NCBI GenBank assembly: GCA_050255995.1
Contig: JBFWIM010000001.1
Coordinates: forward strand, 709 to 64,708
Reading direction: 5' to 3'
Length of the DNA: 64,000 nt
From: Intestinibacillus sp.
GTDB taxonomy: Bacteria; Bacillota; Clostridia; Oscillospirales; Butyricicoccaceae
Shown here piece by piece: positions 2,210 through 50,107 of this stretch. Position numbers and translations under genes: made by a program. Below the pieces are notes generated by a model, which was not told the origin of the DNA, did no database searches, and saw only the letters and a program-made list of their open reading frames with translations. Every line of letters starts with the position of its first letter. The stretch's first letter is position 1.

Positions 2210-3733
2210 ATGAAATACCGTAGAAAGCAGGCGGCCCGGGGGGCGTCGCCGCAGGAGACCCATGTGCAGCATTCGCCCGGCGGCCTGAAGGGCCGCTGGA
2301 TGATCAACTCGCTTTCCTTTGTTGTCTGCATTTTGGCCGCCGTCATCATCTTTGTATCGATGGGCATTTCGAGCTACTATTATTCCAACCTGCGCGGCAA
2401 CCTTGTGACGCGCGCGAGCGAGACCGCCAGCGTGTTCAAAAAATACTGGACGGACAGCGAGGAGCAGTTTATCTCCATGGCCGACCAGCATGTCGCCGAC
2501 TTTAAGGAAAAGGACAAGCTGGAGCTGCAGTTCATCGACCGGTACGGCCGCGTGTTCTGCTCCTCCTCCGGCCTCGCGACCGATTCGATCCCAGGCACGA
2601 GCGACGTGCAGCACGCCATGGAGGACAAGCAGATCAGCGTGTACACCGGCGAGGACCCGCAGACGGATGAGCGCGTGATGAGCGTCAGCGCCCCGCTGAC
2701 GACCAGCCACGGCGATATGGTCGGCGCGGTGCGCTACATCACCTCGCTCGCGCTGGCCGAGCGGCAGATCGCGCTGGTCATCCTCATTTCCATCGCGGGG
2801 AGCCTGGTGTTTCTGGTACTGGTCGTGCTGTCCAACCGTTATTTTATCAAATCCATTCTGGAGCCTGTCATGAGAATCAACGTCATCGCCAAGGAGATCG
2901 CGGCGGGGCGGTACGGTATGCGCCTGCACAAGGCGTATGACGACGAGATCGGCGAGCTGTGCGATACGATCAACTACATGTCGGACGAGATCAGCCGCGC
3001 CGAGCACATGAAAAACGACTTCATTTCGTCGGTATCCCATGAGTTGCGCACGCCGCTGACCGCCATCGCAGGCTGGAGCGAAACCCTGATTGCGGGCGGC
3101 GCGCAGGACACCGAGGAGACCATGCAGGGTCTGGAAATTATCCAGAAAGAGAGCCGCCGCCTGACCCAGATGGTCGAGGAGCTGCTCGACTTCTCACGCA
3201 TGGAGAGCGGACGCATGAAGCTGGAGGTCGAGTCCTTCGACGTTTCCACCGAGCTGTACGAGGCGCTCTACATGTATGAAAACCTGCTTGAGGACGCGGG
3301 CATCCGCGTGCATTATCAGAAGCAGGAAGGCAATTACTTTATCAGCGGCGACCGGCACCGCATCAAGCAGGTGTTCCTGAATATTCTGGACAACGCCGCA
3401 AAATACGGCAAATCCGGCGGACGCATCGAGGTCAGCCTGCTGCGCGAGGGCGGCAACATCGTCGCCTGCGTGCGTGACTGGGGCGTGGGCATCCCGGAGG
3501 CGGAGCTGCCGTTCGTCAAAGAAAAGTTCTATAAAGGCAGTTCCAAGCAGCGCGGCAGTGGCATCGGGCTGGCCGTCACGGACGAAATCGTGACGCTGCA
3601 CGGCGGTTCTCTTGAGATCCGCAGCCGGGCCGGCGAAGGAACCGCCGTATACATCATACTGCCCGCGCTGGAAGCGCATACCGCCATGGGCGTCGAGGGC
3701 ATCACGGAACCTACGGAGGAGACGGAAGAATGA
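2210..3733 (+). CDS. HAMP-domain sensor histidine kinase (start may be GTG 2264 after AGGAG)
   Basis: Two TM segments; H-box SHELRTPLT; N-box NILDNAAKY; DWGVGI; GSGIGLA. Confidence 0.95.
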   Translation: MKYRRKQAARGASPQETHVQHSPGGLKGRWMINSLSFVVCILAAVIIFVSMGISSYYYSNLRGNLVTRASETASVFKKYWTDSEEQFISMADQHVADFKEKDKLELQFIDRYGRVFCSSSGLATDSIPGTSDVQHAMEDKQISVYTGEDPQTDERVMSVSAPLTTSHGDMVGAVRYITSLALAERQIALVILISIAGSLVFLVLVVLSNRYFIKSILEPVMRINVIAKEIAAGRYGMRLHKAYDDEIGELCDTINYMSDEISRAEHMKNDFISSVSHELRTPLTAIAGWSETLIAGGAQDTEETMQGLEIIQKESRRLTQMVEELLDFSRMESGRMKLEVESFDVSTELYEALYMYENLLEDAGIRVHYQKQEGNYFISGDRHRIKQVFLNILDNAAKYGKSGGRIEVSLLREGGNIVACVRDWGVGIPEAELPFVKEKFYKGSSKQRGSGIGLAVTDEIVTLHGGSLEIRSRAGEGTAVYIILPALEAHTAMGVEGITEPTEETEE

Positions 3734-5624: not shown

Positions 5625-5655
5625 CGGTATGCATTCCGCCTTTATAAAAAATATT

Positions 5656-5694
5656 CGAACATATGTTGCAATTCCCGCCGGCGTGTGGTATTAT
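5656..5694 (+). promoter_or_regulatory. recA promoter with LexA (SOS/DinR) box
   Basis: CGAAC-ATAT-GTTGC at 5656-5669 overlaps -35 TTGCAA (5666-5671); 17 bp spacer; TG-extended -10 TATTAT (5689-5694). Confidence 0.8.
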
Positions 5695-5804
5695 ATGAGC
5701 ACTTGGTGAGGACAGGCCGAAGGCGAAAGACAAGCTTTAGGCGCATATGCCCTTGCGGGACAATAAGGCTGCACACAAAACAGCCGCGACAGGGAGGAAC
5801 ACGC

Positions 5805-6962
5805 ATGGCAACCAAAAAGCACATTGAGCCGGTTGTGCCGGCTACCGATAAGAAAAAGGCGCTGGAGGCGGTGCTGGGGCAGATTGAAAAGAATTTTGGT
5901 AAGGGCGCCGTCATGCGGCTTGGCGAGAACGCCGGGATGCACGTGGACCATATCCCGACCGGATCCATCGGCCTGGACACTGCGCTTGGCATCGGCGGCC
6001 TGCCGCGCGGCCGTATCGTGGAGATTTACGGGCCGGAATCCTCCGGTAAGACCACGGTGGCGCTGCACGCGGTCGCGCAGGCGCAAAGGCTGGGCGGCGA
6101 AGCCGCATTCATCGACGCGGAGCACGCGCTCGACCCGATCTATGCCCGGGCGCTCGGCGTGGATATCGACAGTTTGCTGGTCTCGCAGCCGGATACCGGC
6201 GAGCAGGGGCTTGAGATTGCGGAAGCGCTCGTGCGCTCCGGCGCGGTCGATATTGTCGTCGTCGACTCGGTCGCGGCGCTCGTGCCGCGCGCCGAAATCG
6301 AGGGCGAGATGGGCGACTCCTTCGTCGGCCTGCACGCCCGCCTGATGAGCCAGGCGCTGCGCAAACTCGCCGGCTCCATCGCAAAGTCCCAGTGCGTCGT
6401 CATTTTTATCAACCAGCTGCGTGAAAAGGTCGGCGTGGTATACGGCAACCCCGAAGTTACGACGGGCGGCCGCGCGCTCAAGTTCTACGCCTCTGTGCGC
6501 ATCGACGTGCGCCGCACGGAGCACCTCAAAAACGGTACCGAGCTGATCGGCAGCCATACGCGCTGCAAAGTGGTCAAAAACAAGGTTGCGCCGCCGTTTA
6601 AGGAGGCCGAATTCGACATTATGTACGGCGAGGGCATTTCCTTCACCGGCGAGCTGGTCGATCTCGGCGTGAAATACAGTCTGGTCCAGAAGTCCGGCGC
6701 GTGGTTCTCCATGGGCGAAACGCGGCTCGGACAGGGGCGCGACGCGGCCAAGCAGTACTTTAAGGATCATCCGGAGATCGGGGAAAAGCTCCACCTTGAG
6801 ATTCTCGAAGCCATCCAGACGGAGCAGGCGGAACAGCGCAGCACGATGAAGGCTGCGAAGCCCGCAGGTACTCCGGCGGCAGTGCCCGTCGCCAAGGCCG
6901 CGCCGGCCTCTTCGGCCAAGGCGGTCTCCATCGACGCGGACGATTTTGACGATGTGGAATAA
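5805..6962 (+). CDS. recA: Recombinase RecA
   Basis: GGAGG RBS; GPESSGKTT Walker A; [11 protein letters not shown]; [10 protein letters not shown]. Confidence 0.99.
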
Positions 6963-7002
6963 GCGCCCTGCCGCGCACCGCGCGGCGGACGAAGGCGGCG
7001 GT

Positions 7003-7485
7003 ATGGATGCGCAGGATTATGAGGCAGCCTGCCAAAAGGCGCTCGACGCCGCAGCAAAGCAGCTCGCCTGCCGGGCGCTGAGTCAAAAACAGCTGCGGGA
7101 CAAGCTGCTTGCCAGGGGCTTTGCGGAGGATGCGGCGGATTATGCGGTCGCCTGGCTGGAAGCGCACGGTCTGCTGAACGACGAGGCGTTTGCCGCGAGC
7201 GTGACGCGCGTCTATGAACGGCGTGGCTACGGTGAAAACCGCATCCGGCAGGAGCTGCGGCGGCGTGGGGTCGGCCGCGATGCGGCGGAGGAAGCGCTGG
7301 AGCAGTTTTCGCCCGATCTTGCGCAAATGACCGCGCTGCTCGATAAGCGCCTGCACGGCGACCTGTCCGACCGGCGTGAGGTCGACAAGGCTGTCGCCGC
7401 GCTGCAGCGGCGCGGCTACCGCTGGGACGACATCCGCGCGGCGCTCCGGGCCTATGGCGCGGAGGGCGGCGACGAAGATTCCTGA
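7003..7485 (+). CDS. recX: Regulatory protein RecX
   Basis: Follows recA; LLNDEAFA, RGYGENRIRQELRRRGV, LQRRGY. Confidence 0.9.
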   Translation: MDAQDYEAACQKALDAAAKQLACRALSQKQLRDKLLARGFAEDAADYAVAWLEAHGLLNDEAFAASVTRVYERRGYGENRIRQELRRRGVGRDAAEEALEQFSPDLAQMTALLDKRLHGDLSDRREVDKAVAALQRRGYRWDDIRAALRAYGAEGGDEDS

Positions 7486-25180: not shown

Positions 25181-25308
25181 CCCTTTCTTTGTCTTCTTGC
25201 CAATATTATATGCAGAATAATATTGGCTGTCAAGCACTTCAGAAAAGATTTACAATTCCGCAATACATGAGACAACGCTATTCTCTGCACCCCTGTATCC
25301 GGCTATGC

Positions 25309-25351
25309 AAAACCGCCGGCCTGTCCACAGCCTGTGGATAAACCGGCGGTT
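25309..25351 (-). terminator. Hairpin/terminator after the tail-fibre-like gene, containing DnaA-box-like 9-mers
   Basis: Minus strand CCGCCGG-TTTATCCACAGGCTGTGGACAGG-CCGGCGG-TTTT. Confidence 0.7.
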
Positions 25352-25357
25352 CCACGA

Positions 25358-25996
25358 TTAACGGAATATGATGTAAAAATAGGGAATGTTGTTTGAATTG
25401 GTGTACAGGTACTGGCTGGAAACGTAAGTGACCTGAAAACCGTTTTCAACAACTGACAACCCAATTTTTGTGGGATCGTTTGCGATGTACTGGGGTTTGT
25501 TTGGCAGTGCGATACCGCCGTAGCAATAGTAGTTGCCGTTGCTGACATAGGTTGTGGCGCCGGAAACGCCGGTCAGCAGCACGGCCTTGGGCTGATACCC
25601 GAGATCGATGACGCGGTTTGTCGTGCCGTCGCCCGTGTAGGTGCCGATCTGCACCACCGCGCAGGACGCAACCTGGGTGAGCAGCGCGGCGTTATCCTGT
25701 TCCCGTGCGGCTGTCTCTGCCGCAAGTGCGGACTGATCGGCCTTGGCGTTCAGCTTTTCGGCGAGCGGCTGATCGAGCATGCTCTCGTGGATCGTGCCGC
25801 CGTAGGTCTGCGCGACGATCCCCTCGACCTTCGCGTCCAGCGCCGCGGCGTCATCCGCCAGGCCGTTGACCGAAAGCCGCAGAGCCTCGGCGTTGCCGTC
25901 AAAATATTGTTTCAGCTCCTCCGCTGAAAGCTGCGGCACATCGGCCAGCGCTGTAATCGGCGATGGAAGCGTTGTAAGACGGCGTTCTGTGAACAA
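25358..25996 (-). CDS. Orphan phage tail-fibre/receptor-binding-like protein (212 aa, TTG start)
   Basis: AAGGAGG (26011-26005) 8 nt before TTG 25996; N-terminal ITALADVPQLSAEELKQYFD; coiled-coil middle; C-terminal GTYTGDG..RVIDLGYQPKAV...YFYIIFR resembling phage fibre tip domains (by eye). Confidence 0.65.
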   Translation of the reverse strand: MFTERRLTTLPSPITALADVPQLSAEELKQYFDGNAEALRLSVNGLADDAAALDAKVEGIVAQTYGGTIHESMLDQPLAEKLNAKADQSALAAETAAREQDNAALLTQVASCAVVQIGTYTGDGTTNRVIDLGYQPKAVLLTGVSGATTYVSNGNYYCYGGIALPNKPQYIANDPTKIGLSVVENGFQVTYVSSQYLYTNSNNIPYFYIIFR

Positions 25997-26051
25997 TGGC
26001 TGTTCCTCCTTCATAAAATAGATACGAGTTACCGGACAAAGCGTGGTTTCT

Positions 26052-26080
26052 ATAATACGAACAAAGGTTCCTGTTGTCAA
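26052..26080 (-). promoter_or_regulatory. Sigma-A promoter with LexA box in the spacer
   Basis: Minus strand TTGACA, 17 bp, TATTAT; plus-strand CGAAC-AAAG-GTTCC at 26058-26071. Confidence 0.75.
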
Positions 26081-26225
26081 GTACCGTTTTGGTTTGGGAC
26101 AATACGACCCGCCACAAACATAAGGCAAGGGCGTTAGATTGAACGCCCTTGCATTGCAAATTTTTATCGCATTTGCAGAAGTCTGTCAAGACGGAGGGAC
26201 GCATCTGCACGTCCCCTATGGTGGT

Positions 26226-27456: not shown

Positions 27457-27768
27457 TCAACCGTCGAACGGCAGCGGCTGGCACGCGAGATTATAGGCGA
27501 GCAAACGGCGCAGCCGGGTCTTTGCACGTTGCAAATGGCGGCATACCGCGGAGGGCGACACCCCCCAGCGCACGGCAATCTGCCGCTGGGACAGTCCCTC
27601 CAGATAATGCAGGCAAAGCGCTTCGTGCTGGCGTGCGGTCAGTTCGTCCTGCATTGCCCGGAAAAAGGCTGTCCGGAAGGCGGCGCGCCAGGCCGAATTG
27701 TCGCCTGCGGCGGACGCCTCATAGCGCAGCAGCGCCTCGCGCTCAAGAGCAGCGTCCGACAGCGCCAT
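27457..27768 (-). CDS. Sigma-70 region-4-only helix-turn-helix protein
   Basis: ELTARQHEALCLHYLEGLSQRQIAVRWGVSPSAVCRHLQRAKTRLR; no region 2; start overlaps the upstream ORF. Confidence 0.85.
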   Translation of the reverse strand: MALSDAALEREALLRYEASAAGDNSAWRAAFRTAFFRAMQDELTARQHEALCLHYLEGLSQRQIAVRWGVSPSAVCRHLQRAKTRLRRLLAYNLACQPLPFDG

Positions 27769-27979
27769 GGCTTTCCCTCTGGTCGTAATAGTGCTGCATG
27801 TCGTAAGCGGCACGGCGGCTTTCGCCCAGCATCCCGTAGAGCGTGCCGATGCGCTTTTTCAGCCTGCGGCGCAGCTCCAGCTGACGGGTGTTCTGCAGCC
27901 TGCAGCGCAGCTGGATGATGCGCAACTCAATCAGCGCGCCATTGACGCGGTATTCCTGCGCCATCTGTTGTAAAGTCAT
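27743..27979 (-). CDS. Hypothetical 78-aa basic helical protein
   Basis: AAGGAGG 7 nt before ATG 27979; overlaps the region-4 gene by 26 bp. Confidence 0.75.
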   Translation of the reverse strand: MTLQQMAQEYRVNGALIELRIIQLRCRLQNTRQLELRRRLKKRIGTLYGMLGESRRAAYDMQHYYDQRESHGAVGRCS

Positions 27980-27999
27980 GCAAATACCTCCTTGCAGTT

Positions 28000-28048
28000 A
28001 GAACGGATGTTTGAATATAATAATAACATCAAACGTATGTTCCGTCAA
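28000..28048 (-). promoter_or_regulatory. Sigma-A promoter with two LexA boxes
   Basis: Minus strand TTGACG, 17 bp, TATTAT (28048-28020); boxes AGAAC-GGAT-GTTTG (28000-28013) and CAAAC-GTAT-GTTCC (28030-28043). Confidence 0.8.
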
Positions 28049-28099
28049 GTAAAAAAAGAAAGCCCCCGCACCGCCAGGGTACGGGGGAACAAAAGCGCT

Positions 28100-48808: not shown

Positions 48809-50107
48809 TCACCGGCCAAAGTATGAGAAATGCATAAAATCGCGCTTGGAGCGCCAGGCATTGCCGCCCCACGAAAAACCATACTTTGTAAAGGCGTTGT
48901 ACACGTCCCCGCCCTCCGCAATGGAATAGGGATCCTCGCCGGGCGTCCAGTGCGTGCCACAGGTCGGGGTCAGGCTGCCGTCTGCATTGATCGTGGCCTC
49001 CATGTTCGCATCGTAGTTGATGTCGATCGCCGTGCCCCAGCGGTGTTCGCTCGTCGGGCTGGGTCGCCAGGCGTAGCTTCCGACGTCCTTAATCGGGAAC
49101 TTTTCGCCGCCGCTGTAAATCTCCTGGAAAACCGCCCGGTAGATCGGGGCGAGCGCGCGGTTGACCGTCACATAGGCCTTTCCGGTAGTTTTGCTGCCGT
49201 CCGGCTGCAGGCGCCAGACCGGCACCTCGATTTCGGTCATCGCGGCCTCGGCCTCTTCTTCCGTTGCAAAATATGTACCGCCTGTGCCAAAAACGAAGGC
49301 CATTTTTTCGGCCTCGGTCTTTGGCAGCGGGGAGGGGATGCCGCCGCTCTGTGCGAAATCCTTCATGTCGTCAAACACCTCGGCGGCGGAGGCCTCGGGA
49401 TCGCCGGCAGCGGTTGTGCCGGAGGAGACGCTTTGCCCGGCCTGCGCGGATTCGGCAGATGCAAAGGTGTTCGTAAAGCGCAGACCGAGCAGGAGCGCCT
49501 GCTCGCGCGTGGTTCTGCCGGTCGGGCTGAGGGCGACCACCTCCCGGGCCTCTCCGGTCTCGTCGGTCGTCAGTTTGGAAACGCCGCGGATGATCCCGCT
49601 GCCCAGCATGCGTTCGACCGCGCTTTTCGCCCAGGCAGCAACATCGCCGCGGTCGGGGTATTCGGAAAGGCTGTCCGGATCGGCCGCAGGGACGTCCAGC
49701 CCGGCGGCGTCGACGATGTTGTCCAGCGTTTTGCACAGCTCCTGCCGGGTAATCAGGCCGCCGGGGTCGAATACGCCGTCTCCGCGGCCGGAAACCAGGC
49801 CAAGCTCGTAAGCGGTCGCGACGTCCGCGCTGTCCGTGTCATCAAAGGGCGTCCCGGTGCTTTGCGGCGCCGTTTCGCCCGTGACCGCGGCGTACAGGCG
49901 CAGGGCGACGCCGCAGAATTCTTCGCGGGATATGCTGCCGGTTGCAGGCCGTTTCAGGAGGGTGACGGGCTCCAGGTCGGCCTTCTGCGCAGCGGCAACC
50001 TCGCTGACAGCCCAGCTGCTCACATCGGCAAGCGCCCATGCTGTGGGCGCGCCGGACAGTGCGGCGCCCACAGCGAGGACGGCGCACAACGCCTGTTTTG
50101 CATGCAT
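48809..50107 (-). CDS. SLH-domain surface protein with C-terminal M15-family peptidase
   Basis: Signal peptide; SLH repeats (ISREEF, GLVSGRGDG.F.P...ITRQE, TTREQA); SEHRWGTAIDIN...DFMHFS. Confidence 0.85.
   Translation of the reverse strand: MHAKQALCAVLAVGAALSGAPTAWALADVSSWAVSEVAAAQKADLEPVTLLKRPATGSISREEFCGVALRLYAAVTGETAPQSTGTPFDDTDSADVATAYELGLVSGRGDGVFDPGGLITRQELCKTLDNIVDAAGLDVPAADPDSLSEYPDRGDVAAWAKSAVERMLGSGIIRGVSKLTTDETGEAREVVALSPTGRTTREQALLLGLRFTNTFASAESAQAGQSVSSGTTAAGDPEASAAEVFDDMKDFAQSGGIPSPLPKTEAEKMAFVFGTGGTYFATEEEAEAAMTEIEVPVWRLQPDGSKTTGKAYVTVNRALAPIYRAVFQEIYSGGEKFPIKDVGSYAWRPSPTSEHRWGTAIDINYDANMEATINADGSLTPTCGTHWTPGEDPYSIAEGGDVYNAFTKYGFSWGGNAWRSKRDFMHFSYFGR

Follow-up and report, generated by a model that had tools for sequence, protein, structure and literature searches.

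A host-resident gene for a phage-type fibre with a putative LexA-controlled promoter in Intestinibacillus

Introduction

Receptor-binding fibres are normally a phage property, encoded by the phage and expressed on the phage's own schedule. A fibre-like gene that stands alone on a bacterial chromosome, behind a promoter with a LexA box, raises the question of whether it is a stray piece of phage or a gene that the host keeps, and in the latter case, what it could be kept for. We studied such a gene in a stretch of 64,000 nucleotides, hereafter the window, from Intestinibacillus sp. (Butyricicoccaceae; assembly GCA_050255995.1, contig JBFWIM010000001.1, positions 709 to 64,708). The fibre unit is a single gene on the minus strand, at window positions 26080-25302. 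A first-pass annotation of the window, made from its letters alone, had described the unit as a stand-alone tail-fibre-like gene with a LexA-boxed promoter and a TTG start, and had regarded it as a phage structural gene in an unusual place.

The analysis presented below suggests that the host chromosome has kept a fibre of clear phage ancestry over a long time and under selection, with the host DNA-damage repressor as its putative regulator. Its relatives travel with the most variable surface genes of common Clostridia from the gut and from waste digesters (Butyricicoccus, Agathobaculum, Intestinibacillus). What appears to be new is a host-resident family of phage-type fibres which at this locus would be under direct SOS control.

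A protein with phage-fibre architecture

The coding sequence (25358-25996, minus strand) starts with TTG (25996-25994), comprises 212 codons and ends with TAA (25360-25358). Three parts can be distinguished in its product. Residues 1-55 (25832-25996, minus strand) constitute an N-terminal fibre anchor module of the PHROG 14469 type, as in the fibres of Pagevirus and of the phage contig L030 discussed below. Residues 25-112 (25661-25924, minus strand) include two long helices (25-65 and 76-112) in the AlphaFold2 model and are presumed to form a coiled-coil stalk. Residues 113-212 (25361-25660, minus strand) form a beta-sandwich tip, which corresponds to one DUF7483 unit and to phrog_24898, a tail-fibre C-terminus. 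The model, a monomer computed with the family alignment, has a pLDDT of 81.7 and places the beta-sandwich at residues 115-211. Both ends of the protein have residues that are invariant in the family alignment, namely L17, D19, P21, L28, K29, R40 and N44 in the anchor and the motif G118-x-Y-x-G...I130...P136 in the tip, and the N-terminal segment and GTYTGDG-type tip motif picked out in the first-pass annotation are accordingly real and conserved. The heptad-like middle described there holds for one of the two helices: a/d periodicity is seen in helix 25-65, where 26 of 2000 shuffles reach it, but not in helix 76-112.

Profile searches relate both ends to phage fibres. PHROG 14469, annotated as 'tail fiber protein', matches the N-terminus of the window protein with E = 2.6e-5 to 2.9e-5 and is hit by every one of the 25 relatives in the family, with E down to 5.5e-19, and phrog_24898 (tail fibre) matches the C-termini of eight relatives. 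The Pfam search with the window protein itself returned no match at E <= 1, DUF7483 included. Relatives score 14.5-27.0 bits against DUF7483 (PF24299), and its gathering threshold of 27 is reached by P0030 only. The DUF7483 model consists of three tandem beta-sandwich units, of which the third alone (positions 229-326 of 330) is covered by the alignment. The homology of the tip to DUF7483 appears clear at the profile level only. Using Foldseek against viral models (BFVD), we obtained 17 matches with E <= 0.001 on the beta-sandwich (best E = 1.2e-5), which fall on the C-termini of phage fibres and of large phage proteins. Foldseek revealed no close solved structure, and sequence matches in the PDB are coiled-coil noise, mainly apolipoprotein A-IV. 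At the level of domains, then, the protein can be considered a member of the phage tail-fibre kind, having both the anchor and the tip. The phage-fibre character that had initially been recognised by eye is upheld by the PHROG 14469 anchor, the phrog_24898/DUF7483 tip, the fold matches in BFVD and a phage fibre, P0135, that shares both ends.

None of the 25 family members has a signal peptide or membrane segment; the maximal hydropathy of ten residues within the first 45 amino acids does not exceed 1.3. The corresponding value is 2.8-3.05 in five neighbouring genes for SLH-domain proteins, whose open reading frames (ORFs) begin at a MKNLKK or VNVKK signal peptide. The product is therefore predicted to be a cytoplasmic protein of phage-fibre architecture, in agreement with a fibre that is put together inside the cell and set free when the cell lyses.

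Counterparts in phages

A tblastn search located the anchor in the 296-aa tail fibre, with an H-type lectin tip, of Bacillus megaterium Pagevirus podophages. The window protein itself, used as tblastn query against GenBank phages, gave one marginal cyanophage match. The anchor common to the two groups aligns at about 40% over residues 7-95 of the family member P0039 (E = 3e-8 to 5e-9; e.g. phage Pascal gp15, PHROG 14469), and the overall plan is the same: the anchor is short and is followed by a stalk and, at the C-terminus, by a binding domain. The tips differ: the Pagevirus fibre ends in its lectin domain and its gene has no LexA operator, whereas the window gene has a DUF7483-type tip and the operator. 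The Pagevirus fibre gene lies in the virion module, directly after that for the 'virion structural protein' gp14, and the window gene lies alone on the chromosome.

The closest phage parallel is found in the metagenomic phage contig L030 (36.5% GC), where a gp14-like protein, with 32% identity to gp14 of Pascal (E = 8e-79), is followed by the 401-aa fibre P0135, a holin and an amidase. P0135 is 33% identical to the window protein in the anchor (residues 2-49) and 35% in the tip (residues 118-212). Its shaft is some 190 residues longer, and its gene has the lysis-proximal position of a phage gene. We consider P0135 to be the best evidence that the whole architecture is that of a true phage fibre. 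Since P0135 shares anchor and tip and has a longer shaft, the window protein would represent a short-shaft version of genuine phage fibre architecture. The low GC content of L030 points to a different, low-GC host. Within Butyricicoccaceae, gp14-like homologues (48% identity) are present in Agathobaculum and in an Intestinibacillus chromosome, in a podophage-like module of 61% GC.

Selection, composition and neighbourhood of the gene

Two orthologues were identified, one in L001 (79% amino acid identity, same synteny) and one in L032 (70%). Together with the window gene they make up the subclade that carries the LexA box, three orthologues in the collections searched; scans of IMG/VR and of JGI metagenomes produced no more orthologues or phage copies. 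Pairwise ratios of nonsynonymous to synonymous substitution rates (dN/dS) among the three are 0.14-0.29 at dS 0.7-0.9. Considered by part, dN/dS is 0.125-0.19 for anchor plus stalk and 0.16-0.40 for the tip, which evolves faster. The GC content at third codon positions (GC3), 0.71, is within the range of the neighbouring host genes.

The neighbours in the window encode NifX-like, PadR, HAAS, PspC and MscL proteins, and no phage structural, lysis or integration genes occur near the fibre gene. Likewise, neither gp14-like nor other Pagevirus structural proteins were detected in the 64-kb window or in 25 family loci. A prophage in view was rejected on these grounds. The position given in the first-pass annotation, with a PadR operon on one side of the gene and a nifX-like gene on the other, is correct. 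The orthologous locus in L032 no longer has the NifX-like neighbour, and the fibre promoter and gene are intact. Between MscL and the fibre gene of that locus (L032 300-640), the NifX-like gene persists as a short 3' remnant (…GGCAGCTGCCGGCATTGAATGTGT).

Given dN/dS of 0.14-0.29 and host-like composition, the fibre gene appears to be a functional host-resident gene and not a prophage relic. The strayed phage structural gene of the first-pass annotation is, in this respect, not what we find. The best matches are chromosomal genes of a Butyricicoccaceae family of about 200-aa proteins, and selection is purifying. Moreover, the other members examined lack a LexA box and nearly all sit beside SLH genes, and direct LexA control would be unusual for a late gene of a phage. 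As to database hits, by which that annotation had proposed to judge phage character, the outcome is divided: the best matches are chromosomal, which counts against a phage gene, but the domain homology to phage fibres holds.

The putative LexA operator and predicted SOS control

The promoter (26052-26080, minus strand) is of the sigma-70/sigma-A type, with TTGACA (26080-26075), a 17-nt spacer and TATTAT (26057-26052); it agrees with the consensus at 11 of 12 positions and has been kept in both orthologues. Within its spacer, ending one nucleotide before the -10 element, lies a predicted LexA operator of the Cheo type, GAACCTTTGTTC (GAAC-CTTT-GTTC, 26059-26070), which agrees at 13 of 14 positions with the consensus CGAACRNRYGTTYC. 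This is the sole perfect GAAC-N4-GTTC in the window. Because 0.85 such sites are expected by chance, the weight of the operator comes from its position, its conservation and the comparison with recA, not from the count.

The operator occupies the same place in all three orthologues, reading GAAC-ATTC-GTTT in L001 and GAAC-TATT-GTTC in L032. When the three spacers are compared, seven of the eight half-site positions are invariant, as opposed to one of eight other positions (Fisher p = 0.005), and the central N4 differs from one orthologue to the next (CTTT, ATTC, TATT). From the -35 element to the start codon, the orthologues are 79-86% identical, to be set against the coding-region dS given above.

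The recA gene of the same window (~5805-6962, plus strand) served as a control. Its LexA box, GAACATATGTTG (5657-5668), overlaps the -35 element of the promoter TTGCAA-17-TATTAT, the operator over the -35 reading CGAACATATGTTG (5656-5668). A RecX-like ORF (6946-7485) comes after recA. Among RecA proteins of named origin, the nearest are those of Intestinibacillus (87% identity), Butyricicoccus (83%) and Agathobaculum (79%), which places the organism in Butyricicoccaceae. A second SOS unit lies about 2 kb from the fibre gene, with MscL and the NifX-like gene in between, and is syntenic in L001. It is an operon (27457-28060, minus strand) for a 78-aa protein without Pfam match and a 118-aa sigma-70 region-4-only protein (PF08281, PF04545), and its promoter contains two GAAC-N4-GTTT boxes (28001-28012 and 28031-28042). 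Since such boxes are found in the promoters of both recA and the sigma-region-4 operon, the organism uses the Cheo-type operator in this promoter geometry. The LexA-boxed promoter proposed at first pass is borne out by its conservation in all three orthologues and by the same type of box at recA.

With a predicted operator that matches the consensus, overlaps the promoter, is conserved and has its counterpart at recA, the fibre gene looks, by sequence, like a member of the LexA regulon. Because a strong sigma-A promoter has the LexA operator in its spacer, we expect the gene to be off as long as the DNA is undamaged and to be among those released early when the SOS response sets in.

A Butyricicoccaceae family linked to S-layer-type genes

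To place the window protein among its homologs, we ran a HMMER scan, which gave 8125 proteins at E <= 0.001. Among the best 150 cluster representatives, about 60 are full-length proteins of ~190-260 aa with the same architecture; the rest include giant proteins with 6-18 tandem tip units. The short proteins come, where the source is named, from Butyricicoccus, Agathobaculum or metagenome-assembled genomes (MAGs) of unclassified Clostridia only, and one MAG has at least three family loci. We propose that the short proteins represent a defined and hitherto unnamed family, characterised by the anchor, the stalk, one DUF7483 unit, a length of about 200 aa and the lack of a signal peptide. Our literature search found nothing on DUF7483, on the fibre family, on its S-layer linkage or on Agathobaculum S-layers. 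The giant DUF7483 proteins (P0055, P0058, P0086, P0127, P0165 and others) are 600-7400 aa long and have 6, 9, 12 or 18 units, usually a multiple of three; some have a C-terminal sorting domain of the type IX secretion system (T9SS) or a GH123 N-domain.

In every locus of the other family members with enough flanking sequence, the fibre gene is convergent, at a distance of 50-90 bp, to a large SLH gene (L002-L006, L008-L013, L015-L018, L020-L022 and L025). The partner encodes an S-layer-type protein, which has a signal peptide, SLH domains near its N-terminus and an extended variable region. Two fibre-SLH pairs often stand back to back (SLH> <fib fib> <SLH; e.g. L005 4923-11895), sometimes beside a tyrosine recombinase. 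Phage structural genes are absent from the SLH-linked loci, and integrases occur in two of them. At one orthologous site, the SSF and MTTB flanks are 96-97% identical, as against 39% identity for the fibre and 43% for the SLH protein; hence the fibre-SLH pair seems to be a hypervariable block whose two genes are replaced together. Anchors and tips are also mosaic between loci, one pair of loci being 35% identical in the N-terminal half and 72% in the tip, and another pair showing the reverse. This mosaicism resembles the tip-swapping pattern of receptor-binding proteins.

Closer forms of coupling between tip and S-layer did not hold. Strict co-variation of the tip with the variable region of the S-layer protein was rejected (Spearman ~0 overall, with agreement confined to the few most recently related loci), and one case contradicts it, with SLH proteins 74% identical and tips 35%. 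A single recombination tract across the tip and the 3' end of the SLH gene was not supported either, and the SLH neighbours do not themselves carry the tip domain, the profile of the family giving no match to them. S-layer proteins are established phage receptors in Clostridia, and for this reason the SLH linkage is biologically suggestive; a related paper deals with C. difficile SlpA (PMC10100898).

The window lineage is the exception in this family. It has no SLH partner, and the LexA operator lies in the spacer of what is otherwise the family-type promoter (TTGAC-17-TATTAT). In the window, SLH domains were detected in one protein only, a 432-aa SLH/Peptidase_M15_4 fusion (48809-50107, minus strand), 23 kb from the fibre gene; from its presence, the organism appears to have SLH-type wall anchoring. 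A LexA box was absent upstream of all of the more than 20 other members examined, so the box was rejected as a family-wide feature. Many members without it have the promoter TATGGCTTGACA-N17-GGCTATTAT(CAT), and some 10-15 nt ahead of the -35 element these members share the inverted repeat TTCATTTCCC-GGGAAATGAA, which is probably the site of a dedicated regulator.

What the fibre may do

The explanation that we favour, while regarding it as tentative, is that the gene encodes a DNA-damage-induced receptor-binding fibre which is provided in trans for phage-derived particles whose own genes lie at other places in the genome. DNA damage would lead to LexA cleavage and derepression of the fibre gene, and the protein would trimerise in the cytoplasm. 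Its conserved N-terminal anchor would dock on phage-derived particles made at the same time from elsewhere in the genome, for which an SOS-inducible prophage, a tailocin or a particle resembling a gene-transfer agent (GTA) are candidates. The anchor is taken as the docking module because it is the most conserved part and is common to fibres mounted on virions. The tip would then decide which ligand on a cell surface the particle binds, with the S-layer or its wall polymer as the probable target, and the fibre would leave the cell at lysis. In evolutionary terms, the host-resident family would have swappable tips and be tied elsewhere, under different control, to hypervariable S-layer-type genes, and the window lineage would have lost the SLH partner and now have a LexA operator in the TTGAC-17-TATTAT promoter of the family. 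Circumstantial support comes from two sides, namely the nearby and syntenic operon for a phage-type regulator under SOS control, and the Pagevirus-like gp14-type modules of Agathobaculum and Intestinibacillus.

Several observations weigh against a fibre supplied in trans. The particle that it requires remains hypothetical, and particle genes were seen neither in the window nor in about 25 family loci. The fibre of the Intestinibacillus podophage-like element (L033) resembles the window anchor marginally (hhalign E = 0.044) and has no PHROG 14469 match. Phage structural genes are normally late genes and not usual direct targets of LexA with a strong sigma-A promoter. Also, a set of paralogues within one genome, every one of them next to an S-layer-type gene and none with a LexA box, is unlike known phage or tailocin fibres. 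Over all loci, the resemblance between tips is not correlated with that between S-layer proteins. Finally, it is no obvious benefit to the host to arm a true phage.

A broader and more doubtful version would have Butyricicoccaceae own a chromosomal repertoire of short fibres of phage origin with exchangeable tips, which serve either as specificity modules for a domesticated GTA- or tailocin-like particle or as decoys against Pagevirus-like phages. Most of them would be S-layer-linked, tying targeting to the surface type, and in the window lineage one would have become detached and wired to LexA, so that damage sets the targeting of released material.

Among the alternatives to a fibre supplied in trans, the one that survives best, though we think it unlikely, is an anti-phage decoy or 'poison fibre'. 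The host fibre would compete for the docking site during virion assembly, the progeny would carry a useless or misdirecting tip, and kin would be protected. LexA control would time such a decoy to prophage induction, and the constitutive-looking promoters of other lineages to lytic infection. The strong conservation of the anchor (invariant residues, dN/dS of 0.125-0.19) speaks for a decoy, and so do the several anchor subtypes and several copies per genome. A host-resident gene under direct host SOS control suits the interest of the host better than it suits a phage late programme, and Pagevirus-like phages are present in Butyricicoccaceae. However, a pure poison needs no tip under purifying selection (dN/dS of 0.16-0.40), PADLOC gives no match to a known defence family, and we retrieved no precedent for the mechanism.

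Next comes a domesticated surface fibre or lectin of the S-layer, comparable to the MAT fibres of Bdellovibrio, which we likewise judge improbable. The protein would be exported, its N-terminal module would sit on the S-layer or wall, and the variable tip would be displayed. The genomic setting of the family argues for this: in at least 20 loci a large SLH gene with a signal peptide converges on the fibre gene at 50-90 bp, and the fibre-SLH pair is swapped as a block between near-identical backgrounds. The DUF7483 type of tip also occurs in giant secreted proteins, some of them with a T9SS sorting domain, and MAT fibres provide a precedent for host-encoded fibres of phage-fibre build (PMC10769870). 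The protein itself speaks against it. The complete lack of signal peptides and membrane segments contrasts with the clear ones of the SLH neighbours, and MAT fibres possess a signal peptide and a beta-rich N-terminal domain (PMC10769870). At the window locus, moreover, there is no SLH partner, the nearest SLH protein being the peptidase-M15 fusion 23 kb away, and SOS control would be odd for a surface adhesin.

An inert relic of a decayed prophage, without present function and with a promoter palindrome that is leftover or coincidence, would accord with the homology to phage fibres, with the second phage-type SOS unit nearby and with a perfect-site count at chance level, but is very improbable in view of an ORF intact in three lineages under the selection described above, a promoter and 5' untranslated region (UTR) that are 79-86% identical with the conservation pattern of an operator footprint, the host-like GC3, the retention of the unit in L032 while the NifX-like gene was lost, and a family that is widespread in Butyricicoccaceae with no phage genes around. 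The remaining probability belongs to functions not yet conceived.

If fibres are indeed supplied in trans, the host range of a phage, a tailocin or a gene-transfer particle can be determined by host genes outside prophages, and prophage annotation and host-range prediction would overlook such genes. If the protein is instead a decoy or a surface lectin, a phage part has been given a new use. Either reading provides a concrete unit for laboratory tests and a defined protein family.

Comparison with known systems

Phage tail fibres are encoded in the morphogenesis module of a phage or prophage, and in this respect the window gene, which lies in none, departs from them. The giant secreted proteins with DUF7483 (PF24299)/DUF7361 arrays share the tip, which is the third unit of the model; the family profile finds 6-18 tandem copies in these proteins of 600-7400 aa. 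The window protein differs from them in having a single unit, below the Pfam threshold, joined to a phage anchor, and no secretion signal.

The nearest known logic for a fibre encoded in trans is that of the Rhodobacter capsulatus GTA (RcGTA), to which the window protein has no sequence relationship. The fibre and head-spike genes of RcGTA are at loci apart from the particle cluster, with SOS-linked host regulation, and they are activated through GafA, not through a LexA box in their own promoter. We know of no GTA in Butyricicoccaceae.

Another parallel is offered by stand-alone bacteriocin genes with LexA boxes, such as those of colicins and pyocins, in which a strong promoter is occluded by LexA and a product without export signal is released by lysis. 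The fibre unit is similar in being a single gene with its own LexA-boxed promoter and no export signal. An SOS-induced bacteriocin was nevertheless rejected, since Pfam, NCBIfam and PADLOC show no killing domain, immunity or lysis gene, and the neighbours are housekeeping or regulator genes. PADLOC and NCBIfam gave no match to a known defence system or named family either. A diversity-generating retroelement target was rejected as well, as far as the window reaches: when 25300-26100 was compared with the whole window by blastn, the inverted repeat of the terminator came up and no template repeat.

SigN (ZpdN) of the Bacillus subtilis plasmid pBS32, a LexA-repressed sigma-like regulator of phage/plasmid type that adds a second tier to the damage response, compares with the neighbouring operon and not with the fibre gene. 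By this analogy, the sigma-region-4 operon and the fibre gene would form a dispersed, SOS-controlled set of phage-derived genes.

The MAT fibres of Bdellovibrio bacteriovorus resemble the window family in being a host-encoded, multi-copy, phage-fibre-like family with a constant N-terminal module and swapped tips (PMC10769870). They are long, and their signal peptide leads into a conserved, beta-rich N-terminal domain of ~130 aa (PMC10769870), whereas the proteins of the window family are about 200 aa long, lack a signal peptide and have a helical phage anchor. Assignment to a MAT-type class of surface fibres was rejected because of the missing signal peptide and the helical N-terminus.

Boundaries of the unit and minor observations

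The NifX-like gene upstream (PF02579) ends in a terminator of its own (26125-26152, minus strand), with an 11-bp stem, seven GC pairs and a T-rich tail. The 5' UTR of the fibre gene is about 50 nt long (25997-26045, minus strand; the transcription start is deduced from the promoter) and contains the Shine-Dalgarno sequence AAGGAGG (26011-26005). Downstream of the stop codon, an intrinsic terminator hairpin followed by UUUU (~25307-25351, minus strand) is formed by an inverted repeat, with a folding energy of -35.3 kcal/mol (z = -5.0). The PadR-HAAS-PspC operon that follows has its own promoter (25233-25205), which agrees with the consensus at 12 of 12 positions. Because the NifX-like gene has its own terminator and the PadR operon its own promoter, the fibre unit is most simply seen as monocistronic and insulated on both sides.

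The first-pass annotation had held that the mechanical ORF call of 256 aa runs through the promoter. This is the case, since that ORF begins at TTG 26128; we discard it as an artefact. We also confirm, for the minus strand, the promoter, the Shine-Dalgarno sequence, the TTG start at 25996, the 212-aa length and the hairpin of that annotation. Evidence for the TTG start comes from the spacing of the Shine-Dalgarno sequence and from AAGGAGG-N8-TTG in both orthologues. All 25 aligned homologues start in the same column (e.g. MFTERK...), and P0002, a public gene call with the sequence of the window protein, likewise has 212 aa. An in-frame ATG at 26014 was rejected as the start, as it overlaps the Shine-Dalgarno sequence and is missing from both orthologues. 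In two sequencing runs labelled 'RNA?', the gene is covered at a depth of 3-6, and so is the DNA of the promoter and terminator, in fragmentary and undirected contigs; as the coverage spans promoter and terminator DNA, it carries no information on the transcription start.

The family-type upstream sites with TATGGCTTGACA and TTCATTTCCC can be seen at L016 ~560-690, L017 ~5700-5830 and 3040-3160, and L020 ~5640-5760, and upstream of the family genes in L005, L008 and L013. In a second subclade, whose proteins begin with MSFSDHK, the 5' UTR is long, and a hairpin very rich in GC, CGCGCGCCCGCGCGCGCG...CGCGCGCG, immediately precedes the Shine-Dalgarno sequence (L003 9930-10000; L010 6930-7000; L022 upstream of 4512 and of 4554). 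This hairpin could exert translational or attenuation control.

The podophage-like element of 61% GC occupies positions 1-21926 of L033 and occurs also in L034 and L035, that is, in an Intestinibacillus sp. chromosome and in several metagenomes. Its head genes encode a terminase, a P22-like portal, an MT-A70/BglII restriction-modification pair, a major head protein and the gp14-like protein. Further genes encode a glycine-rich fibre of 498 aa, a 226-aa protein, a holin, an amidase and a 2999-aa protein with PBECR3, LPD23 and M23 domains.

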